Assembly: GCA_023261505.1 (NCBI GenBank)
Contig: JAHFOV010000002.1
Location: 14,136 to 78,135 of the forward strand
Length of the DNA stretch: 64,000 nt
Direction of reading: 5' to 3'
Source of the DNA: Planctomycetota bacterium
GTDB taxonomy: Bacteria; Planctomycetota; Brocadiia; Brocadiales; Bathyanammoxibiaceae
The notes under the pieces are model-generated. The model saw only the letters and a program-made list of their open reading frames with translations, was not told the DNA's origin and made no database searches. The position numbers and the translations under genes were made by a program. This document shows, piece by piece, positions 150-17,430 of this stretch (position 1 is the first letter of the stretch; the number at the start of each line of letters is the position of its first letter).

Positions 150-1286
150 ATGTCTCCCAAAATAAAAAATCTCCTCCCCCCAGGTAATTACTTCTTTGAA
201 GGCAATCAGGCCTGTGCTGAGGCGGCGCTTGCGGCCGGGTGCAGGTTCTTCGCAGGCTATCCTATCTCCCCGTCTAGTGAGATACTTGAGAGGCTCTCCT
301 GGCGGCTCCCAGAGGTGGGAGGGGTGTTCATCCAGATGGAGGATGAGATCGCCTCCATTGCGGCAGTAATCGGGGCGGTGTGGGCAGGGGCTAAGGCAAT
401 GACGGCCACTAGCGGGCCGGGCCTCAGCCTAATGCTAGAAAATATTGGCTACGCTATCATTACGGAGACTCCCTGCGTCGTAGTCGACGTCCAGAGGGCC
501 GGCCCTTCCACAGGACAGGCTACCAGACCCTACGATGGGGATATTATGCAGGTCAAGTGGGGTTCAAGTGGGGATTATCAGATTATTGCCCTCGCCCCCT
601 GGTCTGTTCAGGAGATGTACGACCTCACCATTCAGGCCTTCAACCTGGCAGAACTATATCGGGTGCCTGTCTTTGTTATGGGTGATGCGGCCTTGGCCCA
701 CCTGAGGGAGAGTTGCCGTATTCCCGAAGAGGTGGAGATAGTGGGGCGTAAAAAGGCAAGCGGCGTTGCTCATTTTGGGACCGATGAGCTTTCTGGTGTA
801 CCCCCAATGGCCAGCTTCGGAGAGGGGGAGGGGTTAATTATCACTGGTTCCACGCACGATGCCCTCGGCTACCGCAGAACCCAGGACTCCGATATACAAC
901 AAAAATTAGTGAACAGGCTTAACGAGAAGATTCTTTCTAACGTGGGCGAGATTATAGAAACAGAGGAATATTTCTTGGAAGGGGCCGATGTGGCGGTGGT
1001 CGCTTATGGGATAGTGGCCAGGGCAGCCCTGGCCGCAGTCAAGGAGGCCCGCCTGAGGGGGATAAAGATAGGATTGCTCAGGCTCAAGACCCTCTGGCCC
1101 TTCCCCGAGGAAAAAATAAGAGCCTTAGAAGCCAAAAAGATTGTAGTCCCCGAGCTTAACCGGGGTCAACTAGTGCGGGAGGTAGAGAGGGTGGCACAGG
1201 CAGAAGTAATATCTGTGAACAGGGTGGACGGAGAGATTATGAGGCCGGGGGAAATCGTGGAGGCGATAAAAGGGGTTAGGGACTAG
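150..1286 (+). CDS. 2-oxoacid:ferredoxin oxidoreductase, alpha subunit
   Basis: 378-aa ORF. 'GNQACAEAALAAGCRFFAGYPISPSSEI' and 'TATSGPGLSLMLE' are OFOR alpha signatures. Beta and gamma genes follow. Confidence 0.85.
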   Translation: MSPKIKNLLPPGNYFFEGNQACAEAALAAGCRFFAGYPISPSSEILERLSWRLPEVGGVFIQMEDEIASIAAVIGAVWAGAKAMTATSGPGLSLMLENIGYAIITETPCVVVDVQRAGPSTGQATRPYDGDIMQVKWGSSGDYQIIALAPWSVQEMYDLTIQAFNLAELYRVPVFVMGDAALAHLRESCRIPEEVEIVGRKKASGVAHFGTDELSGVPPMASFGEGEGLIITGSTHDALGYRRTQDSDIQQKLVNRLNEKILSNVGEIIETEEYFLEGADVAVVAYGIVARAALAAVKEARLRGIKIGLLRLKTLWPFPEEKIRALEAKKIVVPELNRGQLVREVERVAQAEVISVNRVDGEIMRPGEIVEAIKGVRD

Positions 1287-1322
1287 GGATTAGGGGTTAG
1301 TAGAAAAGATGAAGAGAGCGGA

Positions 1323-2120
1323 ATGAGTGAAAAGAAGGGAAAGGAAATGGAAGCCACCTGGAAAAAATACCTAAGAAAAGAGACCCTGCCCCTACCATTT
1401 TGCCCGGGCTGTGGGCATGGGATAGTGCTTTCTGCTATCCTTAGGGCCATTGAGGCTTCAGGGATAGATATAAAGGACATGCTCTTTGTCTCGGGGATAG
1501 GCTGTGCTGGCTGGATTCCAAGTCCACACATAAGGGCTGATACCATGCACGTTACCCATGGTCGCCCCATAGCCTTTGCCACAGGGGCCAAACTCTTTAA
1601 CCCCAGGCTTAAGGTCATGGTAGTGAGTGGTGACGGAGACCTGGCCTCCATCGGTGGAAATCACCTTATTCATGCGGCAAGGCGGGATATTGATATGGTG
1701 GTGGTGTGTGCCAACAATGAGATATACGGTATGACTGGCGGGCAGGTCTCCCCCACTACCGGACTAGGAGTCAAGACGACAACGACGTTAGCGGGGAATA
1801 TAGAGCCACCACTAGATTTATGTAAGCTGGTGGAGGCGGCCGGGGCAAGCTATGTGGCGAGGTCAACTGTCTTTCATCTGGAACACCTTATTAGTCTTCT
1901 TAAAAGGGCACTAAATCTTAAGGGCTTTTCATTTATAGACGCCTTATCGCCATGCCCTACACAGTATGGAAGGCGGAACCTCTACGCCTCAGCAGCGGAA
2001 CAGTTAAAAGACCTGGAGAAGAGGTGCATCTTGCTGCAAGAGGCCAGCGCTGCACCTCCGGAGACGCTGAAGGATAAGGTTATCATAGGAGAGTTTGTCC
2101 TTAGAGACAGTAAGCAGTAG
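1323..2120 (+). CDS. 2-oxoacid:ferredoxin oxidoreductase, beta (TPP-binding) subunit
   Basis: 'FCPGCGHG' cluster cysteines, 'SGIGC' and the 'VVSGDGDLASIGGNH' TPP motif. Confidence 0.85.
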   Translation: MSEKKGKEMEATWKKYLRKETLPLPFCPGCGHGIVLSAILRAIEASGIDIKDMLFVSGIGCAGWIPSPHIRADTMHVTHGRPIAFATGAKLFNPRLKVMVVSGDGDLASIGGNHLIHAARRDIDMVVVCANNEIYGMTGGQVSPTTGLGVKTTTTLAGNIEPPLDLCKLVEAAGASYVARSTVFHLEHLISLLKRALNLKGFSFIDALSPCPTQYGRRNLYASAAEQLKDLEKRCILLQEASAAPPETLKDKVIIGEFVLRDSKQ

Positions 2121-2200
2121 GTAGTACGCAGTAAGCAGAAAACCCTAGCTTTCCATTTTTACTCCATGGTGCCTAGCCGCTACTGCTTAGTGCTTACTGC
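2109..2200. repeat. family E heptamer-periodic inverted repeat (AGTAnGC)n ... (GCnTACT)n
   Basis: Left arm 'agtaagcagtaggtagtacgcagtaagcag' and right arm 'gctactgcttagtgcttactgc'. Spans the stop codon of the beta subunit. Confidence 0.75.
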
Positions 2201-2218
2201 CCTGTGTTTCTTAAGTAT

Positions 2219-2767
2219 ATGAACGACACAAAAAAGGAGATTAGGATAGCAGGCCTTGGCGGCCAGGGGGTGGTCTTTGCGGCCCAGTTATTGGGTAGGG
2301 CAGGGGTCCTTGAGGGATGGTTTGTCTCTCAGTCCAGTTTCTACGGCCCGGAGTCAAGGGGCACCCTTTGTTATGCGGATGTTATCCTCTCCAGGGAATC
2401 TATAGACTTTCCCTTTGTGACAAGACTTGATATATTAATAGCTTTAAGTCAGGAGGGATACGATAGATTTGCAAAAGATACTGTAGGGTGCACCTTCTTT
2501 GATACAGGGCGGGTAAAACCTGACCTTTCTTTAAAGATGGAGCATTTTTCTGTAACGGCTGAGGAGATGGCACAGAAGGAGTTGGGAAAAAAGATGGCAG
2601 CAAACTTGATAAGCATTGCGGCCTGTTGTGCAAAAACAGGAATAATCTCGAAGGAATTCCTGATAAAGGCTCTGCAAGAGTTAATAGAGGGATCTCAGAG
2701 GCCTGTTAATATTAAGGCCCTGGAACTGGGCTGGGAGTTGGGAATAAAGGCGGTGGCCCATGTTTGA
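2219..2767 (+). CDS. 2-oxoacid:ferredoxin oxidoreductase, gamma subunit
   Basis: 'IRIAGLGGQGV' gamma-subunit motif. The ATG at 2219 is preferred over the GTG at 2204 given in the ORF track. Confidence 0.8.
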   Translation: MNDTKKEIRIAGLGGQGVVFAAQLLGRAGVLEGWFVSQSSFYGPESRGTLCYADVILSRESIDFPFVTRLDILIALSQEGYDRFAKDTVGCTFFDTGRVKPDLSLKMEHFSVTAEEMAQKELGKKMAANLISIAACCAKTGIISKEFLIKALQELIEGSQRPVNIKALELGWELGIKAVAHV

Positions 2768-4091
2768 GAAATTTCCTTTGATAAAGGTAAAGCCTCCGGG
2801 ACCGGAGGCCAGGGTTCTACTAGAAAAGGATGCAAAATATATCTCGCCGTCCTCGAGCAGGGCCTATCCACTAGTGGTTAAGCGTGCCCAGGGGGCCATG
2901 GTGGAGGATGTGGACGGGAATCGTTATCTGGATTTTACTGCTGGTGTGGCAGTTACTAACACATGCCATTGTTCTCCTGAGGTGGTGAAGGCAATCTGCG
3001 ACCAGGCGAGGGAACTTTTGCACATGTCCGGCGCAGATTTCTTTAATCCATTACAGATAGAATTGGCCGAAAAACTTAGCGAACTTTGCCCTAGCCCATC
3101 TCCTAAGCGGGTATTCTTTAGTAACTCGGGGGCAGAGTCTGTCGAGGCTGCCATAAAGCTAGTCAGACACCGTACAGGGCGTCCTTACATCATTGCCTTT
3201 ACTGGCGCCTTTCATGGGCGTACCATGGGTGCGCTCTCCATTACTGCAAGCAGGCCCATACACAAGAAGGGTTTCTCACCGCTGGTTCCTGGAGTAATCC
3301 ATGTCCCTTATGCCTACTGCTACCGATGCCCTTATGGGGTAGCTCACCCAAGGGAGGAACTGGCCTGCGTAGAGTGGATAGAGGAAGAATTATTTAAAAC
3401 CTATGTGCCACCTGAAGAGGTGGCTGCAGTATTTGTTGAACCTATCCAGGGGGAAGGGGGTTACATAGTCCCACCAAAGGCCTTTCTGAAGGATTTGTCA
3501 GACTTATGCAGGAGGTATGGTATCCTTCTTGTGGCTGACGAGGTGCAATCGGGGATGGGCAGAACTGGGAAGATGTTTGCTATTGAGCACTTTGAGGTAG
3601 AACCGGATGTAATATGCCTGGCCAAGGGTATTGCCTCGGGACTGCCTCTAGGGGCGACCATAGCCCGGCAGGAATTGATGGAATGGCCCCCCGGTTCTCA
3701 TGCTAGCACCTTTGGGGGGAACCCCGTGAGCTGTAAAGCGGCCCTAGCTACACTGGAACTCTTGAAGGGTGGTTTAGTGGCCAATGCGGCAGTTGTGGGA
3801 GATTATCTCTTGAAGGAATTGGAAGGTCTTTACAATAATCATCCAATCATGGGCGAGGTGAGGGGCAAGGGGTTAATGATTGGTATAGAACTGGTAAAGG
3901 ACAGGGATACCAAAGAAAGGGCCTCAGAGGAAAGGGATAAGATTGTGCAGAGGGCCTTTGAGAAGGGGCTTCTCCTATTAGGTTGTGGCAAGAACTCTAT
4001 CCGTTTCGCACCACCCCTGATTATCACCAAAAAGGATGCGGATACTGCGTTAAATATCCTTGAAGAGGTGCTGAGGGAAATAGAGGGATGA
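2760..4091 (+). CDS. class III (GabT-like) PLP aminotransferase
   Basis: 'SNSGAESVEAAIKL', 'DEVQSGMGRTGKMFA' and the PLP-lysine context 'LAKGIASGLPLGA'. The start overlaps the gamma-subunit stop (ATGTTTGA). Confidence 0.85.
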   Translation: MFEKFPLIKVKPPGPEARVLLEKDAKYISPSSSRAYPLVVKRAQGAMVEDVDGNRYLDFTAGVAVTNTCHCSPEVVKAICDQARELLHMSGADFFNPLQIELAEKLSELCPSPSPKRVFFSNSGAESVEAAIKLVRHRTGRPYIIAFTGAFHGRTMGALSITASRPIHKKGFSPLVPGVIHVPYAYCYRCPYGVAHPREELACVEWIEEELFKTYVPPEEVAAVFVEPIQGEGGYIVPPKAFLKDLSDLCRRYGILLVADEVQSGMGRTGKMFAIEHFEVEPDVICLAKGIASGLPLGATIARQELMEWPPGSHASTFGGNPVSCKAALATLELLKGGLVANAAVVGDYLLKELEGLYNNHPIMGEVRGKGLMIGIELVKDRDTKERASEERDKIVQRAFEKGLLLLGCGKNSIRFAPPLIITKKDADTALNILEEVLREIEG

Positions 4092-4702
4092 GAAGTTATT
4101 TCTCTAATAAATACAAACTATCTCTTTTGCTTCTCTGTCTTTTCTTATTCTTAGGGGCTGTGGAGCCTGAGGAGGGTCTCTTTGAGAAAATGGTTATAGA
4201 CAAACTTACCTCTCTGGAATCCAGCCTTAAGGAATTGACCAATAGAGTAGAAGATATAGAACGACGGCTGTCAAGGGTAGAAAAGAACCTCATTGCTGTA
4301 AGGGCCCCCAGCCCCGTCGCTCCCCTCACTTCGCAAGGGGAGGGGGCTACTGAACCTTCGTCAGGAATGACTGTGCCACCTCAGGAGCCGCCTAAGAAAA
4401 GACTTAAGTCCTCAGTTCCTAAGGAGAAAGAGATAGCTGATGGATTGAAAGTTGTAGATGTTGACTACTATGGCACAGGGAAGAATACCTTTTTTAAGGG
4501 AGAAATAGAAAATAACACGGGGGATGACATTGTATACGCCTTATTCAAGATAGAGGTGTATGGGGAGCAGGGAGATTTGCTGGGCATTGAGTCCTTTGAA
4601 GTCAAGGATATAAAAAGGGCATGGCCTAAGAAGTTTACATTGACTATATATCATGTTGAGGATGACACTATAGCTGATTACTCAATTAAGCGGCTCAAAT
4701 GA
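4088..4702 (+). CDS. hypothetical membrane-anchored coiled-coil protein
   Basis: Hydrophobic N-terminus 'LSLLLLCLFLFLGA', a heptad-like segment and a Pro-rich linker. ATGA overlap with the upstream gene. I recognise no family. Confidence 0.5.
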   Translation: MRSYFSNKYKLSLLLLCLFLFLGAVEPEEGLFEKMVIDKLTSLESSLKELTNRVEDIERRLSRVEKNLIAVRAPSPVAPLTSQGEGATEPSSGMTVPPQEPPKKRLKSSVPKEKEIADGLKVVDVDYYGTGKNTFFKGEIENNTGDDIVYALFKIEVYGEQGDLLGIESFEVKDIKRAWPKKFTLTIYHVEDDTIADYSIKRLK

Positions 4703-4754
4703 TAATTGAGGTTTTAATCAGCTTCGGGCGGATTGAGACGCCGCAGGCGACGCA

Positions 4755-4861
4755 GTCATTGCGAGAGACAAAGTCCCGAAGTCACGCCAAAGGCGGATTC
4801 GTCTTTGGCGAACAATCTCATTCTGTTTTGGGAGATTGCTTCGCTCCACGCGCAATGACAG
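4755..4861. repeat. family A palindromic repeat (GTCATTGCGAG...GAAGCAATC / GATTGCTTCG...CGCAATGAC arms)
   Basis: Left arm at 4755-4783, right arm at 4831-4861 and an inner hairpin 'cgccaaaggcggattcgtctttggcg'. Confidence 0.8.
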
Positions 4862-4946
4862 CTTCTTTTCCTTGACTGATCGGAATGACATGAACTATTA
4901 GCCTGACTTTTGCATCTATACAGGTCACCGCCCAATTGATTTGCAT

Positions 4947-5717
4947 TTACCTGTTCTTAAAGCTCGGTGGCCGTTTTTCCAGAAAGGCCCTTATCCCTTC
5001 CTGGCTATCCTCCGTGAGAAAGGATCTGCTGAAAAGTTTTGTTTCTAATTCCAGCCCCTCTGCTAACGGCCTGGGTAGACCCCATTCCACGGCCTCGATA
5101 ATTAGGCCCATGGCAATCGCAGGCTTTCCGTGTAGCCTTTTGGCGAGGAATTTCGTTTCTTCCAGGAGTATCATGGGTTTGGTTACGTGATTAATGAGGC
5201 CGATGGCCTTGGCCTCTTCAGCAGTAAGCGGTTCTCCTGTCAGGAGCATTTCCAGGGCCCTGCCCTTTCCAATTAATCGGGGGAGTCTTTGAGTGGCACC
5301 CGCTCCTGGGATTATTCCGAGATTTATCTCTGGCTGTCCAAGTTTCACGGCCTCTGCGGCTATCCTTATGTGGCAGGCCATAGCTAGCTCCAACCCTCCT
5401 CCAAGGCAGTGGCCGTTTATGGAAGCAATAACAGGGATAGGGCTAAGTTCTATCCTCCTGAGTATCTCGTGATATTGCTGGGCAAACCGCATTACCTCCT
5501 GCACAGAGCTGAACTGGGCCAGTTCTTTTATGTCTGCCCCGGCGCTAAAGAAGTTGCCAGTACCTGTGATAATTATCACCTTGGCCCCTTTCAGTTCCGC
5601 AAGGGCCTTGTCTAGTTCCAACATCGCCTGGCGGGAGAGGGCGTTTACAGGAGGATGATTAATCCTTAGTAGGGCAATCTCTTCTTCTACACTCATTGTA
5701 ATAGCTGGTTCTGCCAT
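4947..5717 (-). CDS. enoyl-CoA hydratase/isomerase (crotonase) family protein
   Basis: 'FSAGADIKE' and 'INGHCLGGGLELAMACHIRIA' crotonase oxyanion-hole motifs. Confidence 0.8.
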   Translation of the reverse strand: MAEPAITMSVEEEIALLRINHPPVNALSRQAMLELDKALAELKGAKVIIITGTGNFFSAGADIKELAQFSSVQEVMRFAQQYHEILRRIELSPIPVIASINGHCLGGGLELAMACHIRIAAEAVKLGQPEINLGIIPGAGATQRLPRLIGKGRALEMLLTGEPLTAEEAKAIGLINHVTKPMILLEETKFLAKRLHGKPAIAMGLIIEAVEWGLPRPLAEGLELETKLFSRSFLTEDSQEGIRAFLEKRPPSFKNR

Positions 5718-13560: not shown

Positions 13561-14790
13561 TTAAGCCCCAAGGAACATTAGCACTATCCCTGACCCAAGA
13601 GGCAAGGAAATATTATCATCTCTTAGGGGCAAGGACTCAAGGAAGGAAGACACCAGGGCTACAGACAAGGCAGGTATAGGAGAAAGGCATAGAAAGGAGC
13701 AAAAACAGGCCACCAGGAAAAAAGCCAGAGTACCCACCACGCTCTTAGAACGATTATAGGGAAGGGGCCTTCCCTTCCACACCTTCCCTACAATGGTGGC
13801 CGCACTGTCGGCAAAGGCTAGTATCCATATTACTACCAGGGCCACATGGGCAGGAAAGAGTAGAAGGGACATTATTACACCAAGGGCCATAGTAATTGGC
13901 CCGGTAACCAGACTTCGCCTTTCATCTATCCTCATACACGCCGTGGTTACACTGCCAAATAAGGGTACTGGCCTGCCATTTAACCGCCCCAACTCAGAAA
14001 GGGCATATAGCACCAGTAATAAAGTTAAAAAAATTACAGTAGGAGAAAAAGCAACATTTGCAAAAAAAGGAACAGCCCCGGCCCATATATGTACAAGCTT
14101 TCTTCTTAGCTCCTGTAAAAATTCCCTCTTCTGGTCAGCCACCTCGCCACCGTCAATATAGTTCAGCAACTCTCTCAGGTCTTTCCCATCTATCAGATAG
14201 TCGGCCTTTTTCCTTACAAGCAGTCCAGCGTTTACACCAATGCTCAGGCCTGCCTGTTCCATTATAGAGATATTATTAGGGTCATCGGCTATTACTACCA
14301 CTTCTTCCCACCCGATATCCCTTTGCCTTGTAAGTTCTTTTATGAGGGCAGCCTTTCCTGTAGAGGTGCTCAAGTCCCCTCCTACTGTCCCTGACAATGA
14401 ATCTCCAGAAAAACCTACATCTATACCAAAACCCATGTCGGCCCCCAGCTTAAAGGCTAAGTCTCTTACCAGGAAATCTGGTACACCGCTACTAATAATA
14501 GCAACTGTATGCCCCCGCTCCTTCAGTTTTTGAATAACTTCTTTAATCCCTGCAATGAGGGTCATCTCCTTGTATACTTTCCATAGGGTATTTAAGGATG
14601 TGCCCCGGAGTGCCTTGTATACCTCCTCTAGGACCCTTTCAATACTAAGTCTCCCTAGGTCGAAGAGGATGCAAAGATGATAGGTGCGAAGATACGAGTA
14701 GAGGCCCTGATTACGGGATAACCTTAGCAGATAGTGATCCCTGAAGATAACGCCGTCTAGGTCAAAGACTATGAATTTCCCCTGTCGCAT
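13561..14790 (-). CDS. fusion protein: HAD-IB phosphatase domain plus polyprenol (dolichol/phytol) kinase-like CTP-transferase membrane domain
   Basis: N-terminal half has 'FIVFDLDGVIF', 'ISSGV' and 'ADDPNN' HAD motifs. C-terminal half is multi-TM with 'FADSAATIVGKVWKG', typical of dolichol/phytol kinases. Confidence 0.6.
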   Translation of the reverse strand: MRQGKFIVFDLDGVIFRDHYLLRLSRNQGLYSYLRTYHLCILFDLGRLSIERVLEEVYKALRGTSLNTLWKVYKEMTLIAGIKEVIQKLKERGHTVAIISSGVPDFLVRDLAFKLGADMGFGIDVGFSGDSLSGTVGGDLSTSTGKAALIKELTRQRDIGWEEVVVIADDPNNISIMEQAGLSIGVNAGLLVRKKADYLIDGKDLRELLNYIDGGEVADQKREFLQELRRKLVHIWAGAVPFFANVAFSPTVIFLTLLLVLYALSELGRLNGRPVPLFGSVTTACMRIDERRSLVTGPITMALGVIMSLLLFPAHVALVVIWILAFADSAATIVGKVWKGRPLPYNRSKSVVGTLAFFLVACFCSFLCLSPIPALSVALVSSFLESLPLRDDNISLPLGSGIVLMFLGA

Positions 14791-14875: not shown

Positions 14876-16423
14876 TCACTCGGCTTCTTCAGGTTTGGGC
14901 AGTAGCTCCCTTTCCCTCATTTCTTCCAATGCCTTGAGTCTCCTGAGTATAGAGGCCTCACTCTGCATACCTATATATTTCTTTAGAAGGTTGGACCAGG
15001 AGATGTATGTGAAGGCATTGGGGTTCATGTGGGCGAGTCCCTTCCTGACGAGGAAGGCGTAGTTTTCCCACATGTATAGGAAATCCCGCTCTATGCGGCT
15101 GGGGTTGCCCTCCTTCGCCCAGAACTCACCATAGAAGCCTCCCAGTGTATCCGGCCATTTTTCCTCCACAGGGGCCGGGGCTTTTGGTCTTTCTTCAGGC
15201 ATTGGAAAAAGGGCCTTCTCCTCATAGAGTTTCTTGAGTAATCCATAGGATTCCTTGACATAGGCGAAGACCTGGTCTGAGGCAAGGTCCATGGAGGTGA
15301 GGTATTCCTTGGAAAATCTTAAGGAATGGCACTGTACGCAGGTCTCTATCCAGGCAAGCCTCCTCTGCGTCAGCTCTGGATTATCACTAATGTATTTACT
15401 GGGCGGAAGGTCCTTAAAGATGTTGTTGTAGAAAAGGACATCTCCTTCACCCATTATGGACTTCCTTACCATATTGTGAGAATACTCTCCCTTGTAATAC
15501 ATATGACAGTAGGCACAGGTCGGTGCTGGGTACTGGGCTTCTTTTAAGGGTTTGTCCCAATCCCACTTTGAACCCTGGGTAGTGTAGACAGTCCCGTGCT
15601 TCGAATCTCGATAATACTCAATATCGGGGTGGTCTGGACCGTTGTGGCAGGTAGCGCAGGCCTCCGGCCTTCTTGCTTCTGCAGCCTTAAACGAATGGCG
15701 GGTGTGACAGCTGTCGCATTTGTGCTGGATGTTGTGGCACATGTCACATCCCTGAACTACATTCTTGTCTGTGGCTGCCCAGATATCTGTCCACAGGTTA
15801 GCATCGTAAGAGCGGGCGTGGCTTTCTCTACCTTCTGGCCAGTCGGGTATGCCATACTTGGCCTCAGAAGAGAATTCTTCTACCTCCTTCGGGTGGCAGA
15901 CGCCGCATGTATCAGGCAAGGGCATTATGAGTTCTTTCCCGTGGTCAAGCTTTTCCGCTCCTGGTTTACCATGGCAATCGATACAACTAACCTGTGCAAG
16001 CTTCCCCCCGAGCGATGCCTTTATCTCCTTTAACCTCTTTTTTTGATATGGCTTAAGTAGTTTAAAGTTACCGTGAGTACTCTCGGCCCAAGACTTTACC
16101 AGTAATGGATTTAGCTTGGAATGACACTCAATGCACTGGTCTCTGCTAAAGACGCCTTGAGGAACGGCTGGAGGCGTGTAGAAATATTGTGGGGCCCAGT
16201 ATTTGTGGGTGGGTATGGGTTCCCAGTACTTTGCATACGGCCCTACACCTTTTCCTACCTCTCCCGGATGGGTAAAGGCCTCCTTTTTTTCTGTTACAAC
16301 CCCGCCGTGGCCGTAGGCTGAGTAAGGCACATCTACGTGAGGCTTTTCCTCCTCTTCTTTGGCAGTGGCAGAAAGACAAAATAAAAATATTGCTAGAATA
16401 CCGACCAGTCCTCTAGGCAACAT
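14876..16423 (-). CDS. octahaem hydroxylamine oxidoreductase (HAO/HZO) family cytochrome c
   Basis: Eight CxxCH motifs (CIECH, CIDCH, CGVCH, CDMCH, CDSCH, CATCH, CAYCH, CVQCH), including the HAO-typical 'CDMCHNIQHKCDSCHTRH'. Signal peptide. The ATG at 16423 follows GAAAGGAAGGA. Confidence 0.85.
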   Translation of the reverse strand: MLPRGLVGILAIFLFCLSATAKEEEEKPHVDVPYSAYGHGGVVTEKKEAFTHPGEVGKGVGPYAKYWEPIPTHKYWAPQYFYTPPAVPQGVFSRDQCIECHSKLNPLLVKSWAESTHGNFKLLKPYQKKRLKEIKASLGGKLAQVSCIDCHGKPGAEKLDHGKELIMPLPDTCGVCHPKEVEEFSSEAKYGIPDWPEGRESHARSYDANLWTDIWAATDKNVVQGCDMCHNIQHKCDSCHTRHSFKAAEARRPEACATCHNGPDHPDIEYYRDSKHGTVYTTQGSKWDWDKPLKEAQYPAPTCAYCHMYYKGEYSHNMVRKSIMGEGDVLFYNNIFKDLPPSKYISDNPELTQRRLAWIETCVQCHSLRFSKEYLTSMDLASDQVFAYVKESYGLLKKLYEEKALFPMPEERPKAPAPVEEKWPDTLGGFYGEFWAKEGNPSRIERDFLYMWENYAFLVRKGLAHMNPNAFTYISWSNLLKKYIGMQSEASILRRLKALEEMRERELLPKPEEAE

Positions 16424-16496
16424 AGTTGTCCTTCCTTTCAACGAAATAAAAAGCTGGGTTGGTGAGAGGATTCTTACCCCCGACCCTCAGAAAAAA

Positions 16497-16525
16497 ATGA
16501 TAGCAAGATTTCTGCCTATTTTCAA
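16497..16525 (-). promoter_or_regulatory. sigma-70-type promoter of the HAO-like gene
   Basis: The minus strand reads TTGAAA-17 nt-TATCAT. The paralogous copy upstream of the neighbouring gene conserves both hexamers. Confidence 0.55.
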
Positions 16526-16595
16526 CTAGCTTATTTTACACACACTTACATATACTTTAGACTGACTCTTCCAACTGGGCTTTTTCACGGCTTTT

Positions 16596-17099
16596 CTATT
16601 CCCACATTTCCTCCTCGCTTTCCGCTTCCCAGCCACCTTCTTCTATAGTTTTCTCAACTGCATTTATGCGGCGCAAAAGTTCATTCACTGCTGTTCTGTC
16701 TACAATTTCTTCTTCTACAATGCCTGCAATGTGGGAAAGAATATTAGCCGCCTCACTGCTTCTCTCTTGTATGGCTTCTATTGCGTTCTGAAAGAAGTTA
16801 TTTGCATTCTCCTTGGATTGGCTGGGGTCCACCTGAAAGGCACCGTCTGGAAGGGACTGATAATAATCATTGATAGCCATTACTTCTTTTACGAGGCTTT
16901 CAACTTTTGTTTCTTTTTTTGGCTCCTTCTTTATTTCCTTTTCCGCCTTTTTTTCAGCTTTTTTTTCTGGCTTGCCCGCCTCTTTTTCTGCACAAGTAAT
17001 ATTTGCGGTAAAGACAAAGAGCGAGAGCAGCTCACATAAAGCAACTATAAAAATTGTGGACTTTGTCCCTGAGTTCCTGCCCAGGCCTCTAAGCAGCAT
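16596..17099 (-). CDS. hypothetical small secreted protein with a Lys/Glu-rich repeat
   Basis: Signal anchor, a 'KPEKKAEKKAEKEIKKEPKKETK' tract and an acidic helical C-terminus. It shares the promoter, 5'UTR and start module of the downstream HAO gene. Confidence 0.5.
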   Translation of the reverse strand: MLLRGLGRNSGTKSTIFIVALCELLSLFVFTANITCAEKEAGKPEKKAEKKAEKEIKKEPKKETKVESLVKEVMAINDYYQSLPDGAFQVDPSQSKENANNFFQNAIEAIQERSSEAANILSHIAGIVEEEIVDRTAVNELLRRINAVEKTIEEGGWEAESEEEMWE

Positions 17100-17197
17100 G
17101 GCTGTCCTTCCTTTCAAAGAAATGGAAATCTGAAGGTAAGCAAATGTATTCTGAACCCTCGGCCCTCCTGCAGAGCCTCAATCATAAAGGATGACAA

Positions 17198-17226
17198 ATA
17201 GTAGCAAGTCTTTTGCTTATTTTCAA
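17198..17226 (-). promoter_or_regulatory. sigma-70-type promoter of the small secreted protein gene
   Basis: The minus strand reads TTGAAA-17 nt-TACTAT, homologous to 16497-16525. Confidence 0.55.
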
Positions 17227-17430
17227 GGAGTTTATTTTACTCAGGTGGTGGAATATATGGGCATATTTTAGGTCTCGGGGAAAGTCATAAATACTTTATT
17301 TACTTTTCACTTAATGGGTGGTGGGAAGGGGGGGAGCTACCAGAGGATTGTTTCAGACTTTATTCCCGCAATGGCAAAGCAGGAGGTGGCTTGCTGGGAA
17401 AGACGTCTTCTAACGATTAGCAGGCATGGC

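Follow-up and report, generated by a model that had tools for sequence, protein, structure and literature searches.

A 167-aa open reading frame (ORF) directly upstream of an HAO-family octahaem cytochrome c gene is probably young, lineage-specific and chimeric, a gene that took over a copy of the HAO gene's own expression and export module. Both genes lie on the minus strand of a 64,000-nt stretch of contig JAHFOV010000002.1 (the window) from the anammox bacterium Candidatus Hypogeohydataceae bacterium YC41, the small ORF at 16596..17099 and the gene for the 515-aa HAO at 14876..16423. Hypogeohydataceae is a family proposed for aquifer anammox bacteria (bioRxiv 10.1101/2023.04.27.538623). The module is present in two copies, part of its leader descends from a tRNA-His gene, the small ORF is an orphan confined to one population, and the HAO has eight haem motifs and a cross-linking tyrosine.

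Copy A of the module (16362..16542, minus strand), which fronts and enters the HAO gene, and copy B (17027..17243, minus strand), which fronts and enters the small ORF, were joined by a single gapped local alignment. Its score was 137, compared with 32.7 ± 5.7 (maximum 57) for 300 shuffles, and it had 81% identity across ungapped columns with 15 gap runs; the regions preceding both ORFs had a mean column identity of 78% when aligned with MAFFT. Two ungapped repeats were found within it, one of 52 nt at 83% identity (16405–16456 and 17081–17132, 676 nt apart) and one of 48 nt at 79% (16495–16542 and 17196–17243, 701 nt apart). Copy A comprised an UP-like box, a −35, an extended −10, a tRNA-His relic, a Shine-Dalgarno (SD) region, an ATG and about the first 20 codons. 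The same elements were present in copy B, in which another ~22 nt of the tRNA anticodon arm survive and the signal-peptide part has insertions.

The predicted HAO promoter is sigma-70-like (16497..16525, minus strand), with TTGAAA at 16520–16525, a 17-nt spacer and TG-n-TATCAT, its −10 being at 16497–16502 (scan 10/12 with TG); a GTAAAATAA box lies upstream at 16531–16539. The predicted promoter of the small ORF (17198..17226, minus strand) has TTGAAA at 17221–17226, a 17-nt spacer and TG-n-TACTAT, with the −10 at 17198–17203 (scan 9/12 with TG) and a GTAAAATAA box at 17232–17240. Both have −35 and −10 hexamers within the 16–18 nt spacing of sigma-70 promoters, which is a match to consensus only. 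A 27-mer pattern over box and −35, GTAAAATAARCTNNTTGAAAATARGCA, occurred within 64 kb at these two sites only, even with 3 mismatches tolerated (0.00 expected). The same was true of a 21-mer pattern over SD and start, TTGAAAGGAAGGACARCYATG (3 mismatches tolerated, 0.02 expected). The HAO ribosome-binding/start block (16421..16441, minus strand; TTGAAAGGAAGGACAACTATG, ATG at 16421–16423) was homologous to AAAGGAGGAAGGGCAACC(A/G)TG of the Tripitaka loci, and that of the small ORF (17097..17117, minus strand; TTGAAAGGAAGGACAGCCATG, ATG at 17097–17099) was the same as copy A in its first 15 nt. Both copies thus had in common a TTGAAA-17-TG-extended −10, the GTAAAATAA box, an identical 15-nt ribosome-binding stretch and the start M-L-x-R-G-L. 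When the 21-nt SD/start pattern was scanned across metagenomes, 13 loci were returned, none of them similar to HAO or the small ORF.

A preliminary description of this DNA had claimed homology of 16410–16539 with 17086–17240, a TTGAAA-17-TA(T/C)(C/T)AT promoter with an upstream GTAAAATAA box in both segments, and a common leader end followed by M-L-x-R-G-L. Formal alignment placed the homology far above shuffles, the promoter scan and the 27-mer recovered the promoter and box in both copies, and the 21-mer was found at both starts, with 15 nt identical. The limits of the segments needed adjustment, the alignment reaching slightly deeper into both coding regions.

The genome nearest to YC41 is JP1, of the same family, whose HAO is 83% identical. 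There, one homologous promoter lies directly before the HAO gene, a divergent epimerase gene lies upstream, and there is no small ORF. Copy A was homologous to the single HAO upstream region of JP1 (score 42 versus 23.9 ± 4.0, with 0/500 shuffles as high). With its single promoter and its lack of the small ORF, JP1 places the duplication after the YC41/JP1 split. The N-terminus encoded by copy A, MLPRGLVGILAIFLFCLS, matched the Tripitaka HAO N-terminus xxLKGLVGILAVSLFCLS, indicating that copy A is the original.

The orthologous HAO gene is directly preceded by an intact tRNA-His gene in the Tripitaka-clade loci L004/L010, L013 and L025. The YC41 leaders aligned to the 3′ part of this tRNA, and the alignment of copy A ran on through the leader to the ribosome-binding site. 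Against Tripitaka tRNA-His alone, copy A scored 34 (dinucleotide shuffles 13.3 ± 2.1, z=10), and against the tRNA plus leader 48 (15.0 ± 2.1, z=15.6); copy B scored 26 against the tRNA alone (13.1 ± 1.9, z=6.8). A tRNA-Gly control scored 16–21 (shuffles ~13.5 ± 2.1), with z=3.6–3.8 for copy A and 1.2–1.4 for copy B. The decayed 3′ fragment in copy A (16455..16491, minus strand) comprises the variable loop, T arm and 3′ acceptor strand and forms the 5′ part of the HAO leader. The fragment in copy B (17148..17183, minus strand) comprises the anticodon arm and the 5′ side of the T arm. This anticodon arm, GATTGAGGCTCT, is still recognisable beside the Tripitaka sequence GACTGTGGCTCT, and copy A lost the arm in a ~22-nt deletion.

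No functional tRNA was detected, by ARAGORN in the window or by Rfam in either leader at E≤10. Apart from sub-threshold chance matches, the leaders gave no Rfam family, and their folding was no better than that of shuffled sequences (z of +0.27 and −0.63). A known riboswitch or structured leader RNA was rejected on these grounds, there being no Rfam family and no conserved or extra-stable fold. Judged by the alignments, the shared 5′ untranslated region (5′UTR) is largely, or at least partly, a decayed tRNA-His fragment and not a dedicated regulatory leader. The preliminary description had seen a conserved 5′UTR shared by both genes; its homology stood, but as a dedicated leader it did not, part of it being a tRNA-His scar that had been missed. 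Derivation of the promoter from the 5′ half of the tRNA (D-arm to −35) was rejected as well: GTAAAATAAGCTAGTTG resembles GTGGGCGTAGCTCAGTTG by eye, yet the alignment score equaled the shuffle mean.

At locus L012, from the Brocadiales metagenome-assembled genome (MAG) Bin_313, a 710-aa primase-like ORF and a 354-aa tyrosine integrase (588–4449) lie directly upstream of a truncated tRNA-His. This 5′-truncated fragment (~4507–4578) abuts an HAO gene of the HAO8 type described below. Since an integrase-bearing element occupies it, the tRNA-His beside HAO was taken as an active integration site. The leader hairpin (GTGGCAG.ACCAC) and SD were tandemly duplicated, independently, in L012 (4601–4648 and 4675–4722), L025 (658–684 and 775–801) and L013 (~4841–4880 and 4957–4992); L004 had them in single copy. 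The first hairpin copy was followed by TTG and a short frame, which in L012 and L013 ends shortly after the HAO start and in L025 is in frame with HAO. From these loci, the spot upstream of HAO appears to be prone to rearrangement and duplication. In the intergenic DNA upstream of the Tripitaka tRNA-His (4540–4860), L004 also had an inverted repeat, long and AT-rich (…ttgtaaattggaaattgcaaatttt / aaaatttccaatttacattttacaa…), as well as tandem repeats of the GCATTC/CGCATTC type.

An integration site at this tRNA raises the alternative that the two copies are attL/attR repeats of an integrative element in tRNA-His, with the small ORF as leftover cargo. Both copies contain a tRNA-His 3′ fragment, the L012 element sits at exactly this tRNA-His next to HAO, and the tRNA portion of copy B has its 5′ boundary (anticodon arm) near that of the truncated L012 fragment. 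The repeat, however, exceeds the tRNA fragment in both directions, into ~50 nt of promoter shared with the single copy of JP1 on one side and into the HAO leader, SD, ATG and signal-peptide codons on the other, and site-specific integration leaves flanks of this kind unduplicated. The interval spans just ~680 nt and contains no integrase or other element gene, and the small protein had no PHROG match. We therefore regard this alternative as very unlikely. Known tRNA 3′ fragments at integrase attachment sites resemble the case in that a 5′-truncated tRNA-His stands beside the gene, with an element at the same tRNA in L012; the window copy differs in being strongly decayed, within a longer duplicated segment and with no element left.

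The small ORF was an orphan in every search. A word-indexed search of 5.8 billion proteins returned only the protein itself, under the organism name Candidatus Hypogeohydataceae bacterium YC41, and an exhaustive HMMER search of 1.84 billion cluster representatives returned itself and one spurious repetitive protein. The latter, P0122 (E=3.8e-6), is 1099 aa long and internally repetitive, and was matched five times at 25–30%; it was rejected as a homologue. No match was found in Pfam, PHROG, NCBIfam or PDB, in agreement with the preliminary description, which recognized no family. By tblastn over 44 loci, including ~30 distinct HAO loci of other genomes, the small protein was found only in three YC41-population contigs. 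These three public contigs carry the same locus at 99.8–99.96% identity to the window. An exact look-up of the 515-aa HAO gave no entry, and it was the small protein that led to the locus. Weak tblastn matches of residues 73–84 at many anammox loci downstream of HAO were rejected as chance, as they fell (E>1) in the opposite-strand HisKA region of an 856-aa histidine kinase. Descent of the ORF body, by simple tandem duplication and decay, from the stretch coding for the HAO N-terminus was also rejected (DNA local score 27 versus 22 ± 2 for shuffles; BLASTP E≥0.24).

The protein has three parts. Residues 1–37 comprise a basic n-region and a hydrophobic stretch of ~21 residues and are a predicted signal peptide or anchor, partly homologous to the HAO signal peptide. 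This N-terminus begins MLLRGLGRNSGTK (three positive charges), has one Glu within the ~21 hydrophobic residues and T-C-A before EKE, and the length of its h-region also suits a signal anchor. Its similarity to HAO in this part was weak and interrupted by an insertion (score 29, reached by 40/1000 shuffles). Residues 38–66 are a Lys/Glu-rich linker, and residues 67–167 are acidic (pI 4.2), with four helices predicted by single-sequence AlphaFold2 (AF2) at a predicted local distance difference test (pLDDT) value of 43.5. The Lys/Glu tract and acidic helical tail of the preliminary description correspond to these last two parts, the helices being those of the model.

Is the small ORF a gene at all? 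It could instead be a non-functional by-product, with a decaying or accidental frame, of a neutral duplication or of one in which the tandem promoter before HAO is what matters. Its orphan status, a low-complexity Lys/Glu tract arising from A-rich DNA and the low-confidence structure model favor this view, and leader and SD duplications without a new gene arose independently in related genomes. Moreover, no minus-strand terminator-like site was predicted between the stop of the small ORF (16596) and HAO, so the upstream promoter can serve HAO. But 166 open codons at the composition of the ORF have a chance probability of 1.5e-5. In frame, the codon log-likelihood was 0.31 per codon (window genes, 0.22 ± 0.04), with negative values for the other frames; the gene-like pattern, seen in the annotated frame only, also held within residues 70–167, outside the Lys/Glu tract. 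The SD block was identical at 15/15 nt in both copies, while the module as a whole differs by ~19% with 15 gap runs, and at such divergence an unconstrained frame of 500 nt should have broken. On these statistics the 167-aa ORF looks coding, and we consider a by-product possible but doubtful.

With the small ORF read as a chimeric gene, some consequences for expression are reasonable inferences from the duplicated signals, namely that both genes are transcribed and begin translation in a similar way and carry related N-terminal export signals. Since no terminator was predicted between them, the upstream promoter probably reads through into HAO and probably acts as a second, tandem promoter for it. 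Co-expression of the small ORF and HAO is plausible.

The 515-aa HAO matched PF13447 (4.3e-80) and had eight CxxCH motifs, at residues 97, 147, 173, 226, 236, 256, 303 and 362. Its top solved-structure relative was N. europaea HAO (3.7e-101), with which all eight haem motifs aligned; the HAO arrangement given in the preliminary description is thereby supported by motifs, family match and alignment. That description had left open whether the cross-linking tyrosine is present. It is: Tyr473 (NPNAFTY) aligned to the cross-linking Tyr467 of N. europaea, where the reductive Kuenenia protein kustc0458, which reduces nitrite and is not cross-linked, has Trp, and the motif was present in 21/24 orthologues checked. 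Asp264/His265 aligned to N. europaea Asp267/His268 (position counted from the printed alignment). The enzyme is presumably oxidative, as predicted from these residues. Although it shares the eight haem motifs, Asp267/His268 and Tyr467 with N. europaea HAO (1FGJ / 4FAS), it is distant from it (the closest aerobic-type HAOs are ~43% identical), the window has no haoB, cycA or cycB neighbors, and its host is an anaerobe. Identity as an HDH was rejected: the protein scored 156 bits against the NCBIfam equivalog NF052343, whose cut-off is 900, its haem 3 motif is an ordinary CGVCH, and its PDB match to HDH was 2.3e-39. A CX4CH at haem 3 is a feature of HDH (PMC6469936).

Orthologues at 64–83% identity were found in Tripitaka, JP1, Subterrananammoxibius, Scalindua, Brocadia and Jettenia, the Brocadia one (B. 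pituitae BBO16506.1) being 68% identical. Beyond the anammox orthologues, identity fell to ~43%, with the HAOs of methanotrophs and ammonia-oxidizing bacteria (AOB). There was no Kuenenia orthologue among the orthologue matches. In the nomenclature of Okubo et al. 2021, HAO8 (PMC7814187), the hao8 gene is the sister of AOB hao and is missing from Kuenenia (PMC7814187, PMC12758564). The YC41 enzyme was filed as HAO8 type because the distribution of its matches fits this description, and it probably belongs to the anammox HAO8 clade, with which it shares the octahaem HAO fold, the eight CxxCH motifs, the cross-linking Tyr and the orthologues at 64–83%. No Kuenenia locus tag applies to it, Kuenenia lacking hao8 (PMC12758564, PMC7814187).

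Several features of related loci were also seen. Members of the clade in Hypogeohydataceae and Tripitaka have an extra mature N-terminal segment of ~35 residues (residues ~22–56 of the YC41 HAO, KEEEEKPHVDVPYSAYGHGGVV...), which is absent in Brocadia, Jettenia and Scalindua (L016–L039). Bin_313 (L011 and L012) has two HAO8-type genes, 77% and 79% identical to the window HAO and in different contexts, one with tRNA-Gly ~1 kb upstream and the other with the truncated tRNA-His and integrase. On a Nitrospira MAG contig (L043, 4658–7545), the middle part of an HAO ORF was closely Brocadia HAO8-like; its start and a neighboring AmoB-like ORF of 419 aa look comammox-like, and it may be a chimeric assembly or a recombinant. 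Downstream of HAO (window 13561–14790; also L004, L009 and L013) lies a gene for a 409–421-aa HAD-hydrolase whose C-terminal half is a membrane part, and after it come RuvX and a Macro-domain gene. This synteny was restricted to YC41, JP1 and the Tripitaka group. HAO and the HAD-hydrolase gene had no terminator-like site between them.

Upstream of HAO, gene order varied from lineage to lineage, differing in every one, and no neighbor gene family was found conserved across the HAO8 clade loci. This bears on the proposal of the preliminary description that the octahaem enzyme is served by the small secreted protein, be it as a dedicated partner, as an assembly factor or as a scaffold, with the module duplicated so as to enforce stoichiometric co-expression and co-localization. 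In its favor, the two genes are same-strand neighbors with promoter, leader, SD and N-terminal export signal in common, the ORF looks coding with its frame kept open, and its strongly acidic C-terminal domain (pI 4.2) is such as an electrostatic binder might have. Small binders of related enzymes provide precedents. The small protein NE1300 is reportedly seen bound to N. europaea HAO in PDB 4FAS. Kustc1130, of ~10 kDa, binds electrostatically to HDH as an assembly factor and is conserved across several anammox genera (PMC6469936; PDB 6HIF). These two small exported proteins that bind HAO-family enzymes were the model behind the partner idea, but the small ORF differs from them. It showed no similarity at E≤10 to any chain of the HAO/HDH entries in PDB, which should include the small binders of 4FAS and 6HIF, and, where Kustc1130 is conserved across genera, it is confined to one population and absent from ~30 orthologous loci.

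Conservation of the small gene beside orthologous HAO genes had been named in advance as what the partner proposal depends on; the gene was found on YC41-population contigs only and was missing at every other HAO locus examined, that of JP1 included. Nor did the 5.8-billion and 1.84-billion protein searches yield a homologue. Because no neighbor is conserved, the HAO8 of all other lineages evidently functions with no protein of this kind. A dedicated partner was accordingly not upheld, and we regard it as unlikely. A narrower version, in which the protein evolved newly in this lineage and serves the HAO8 enzyme as an accessory subunit or a membrane tether, having been born by copying of the enzyme's own promoter, leader and signal peptide onto foreign coding sequence, is likewise unlikely. 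Adjacency and shared signals are all that connects the small protein to HAO in function.

The history that we favor for the chimeric gene would have started from the order tRNA-His followed by HAO, as still seen in the Tripitaka clade. The tRNA-His would have been used as an integration site by integrase-bearing elements, and in Hypogeohydataceae only a decayed 3′ fragment of it would remain. This scar would now lie within the HAO 5′ leader, between the sigma-70-like promoter, common to JP1, and the HAO SD. After the YC41/JP1 split, a stretch of ~200 nt, beginning with the UP-like box and ending with the first part of the signal peptide, would have been copied to a place ~680 nt upstream and joined in frame with an unrelated body of ~130 codons. 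The resulting 167-aa ORF would be transcribed and translated from HAO-type signals, and its product sent across or anchored in the membrane via an HAO-derived N-terminus. Partial duplication that recruits a promoter and signal peptide is a general route to chimeric and orphan genes. The YC41 case resembles it in that a 5′ module was copied onto unrelated sequence, giving a taxonomically restricted ORF; it differs in that the duplicated leader is a tRNA scar at an integration hot spot, an unusual source of a 5′UTR.

Several points weigh against this history. A simple tandem duplication of the HAO 5′ end would predict residual HAO homology in the ORF body, and since none was detected there, a second step (replacement or insertion) or non-tandem copying would be needed. 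The promoter half of the module showed no significant similarity to the tRNA 5′ half. Promoter use, translation, export and read-through are inferred from consensus matches. The codon score of the small ORF is driven partly by its Glu/Lys-rich composition, and its putative folded domain was modeled at low confidence. No single-nucleotide polymorphisms were found in the small ORF or the modules among the three YC41 contigs, which makes these contigs uninformative on selection. The placement in HAO8, finally, rests on the pattern of matches and on published text descriptions.

For the enzyme itself, the finding means that YC41 has a Tyr-bearing HAO, presumably oxidative, from the clade nearest to aerobic HAO, and that this HAO is an ordinary member of a known anammox paralogue clade. 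As no partner gene is conserved in any lineage of that clade, annotations should not carry the small ORF forward as an "HAO accessory protein". If the accessory-subunit reading were nevertheless true, the new protein would have gained the expression programme and compartment of the enzyme (anammoxosome or periplasm) automatically, and the locus would be a caught-in-the-act origin of the small HAO/HDH binders of nitrogen-cycle bacteria. For genome evolution, the locus is a compact, well-resolved case in which a tRNA gene sitting at an integration hot spot became, by decay, the 5′ leader of its neighbor, and this leader region was duplicated repeatedly in relatives and in one lineage yielded a module that created a restricted, apparently coding ORF. 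The locus looks like local gene birth at a tRNA integration hot spot, an instructive anecdote rather than a new kind of system.

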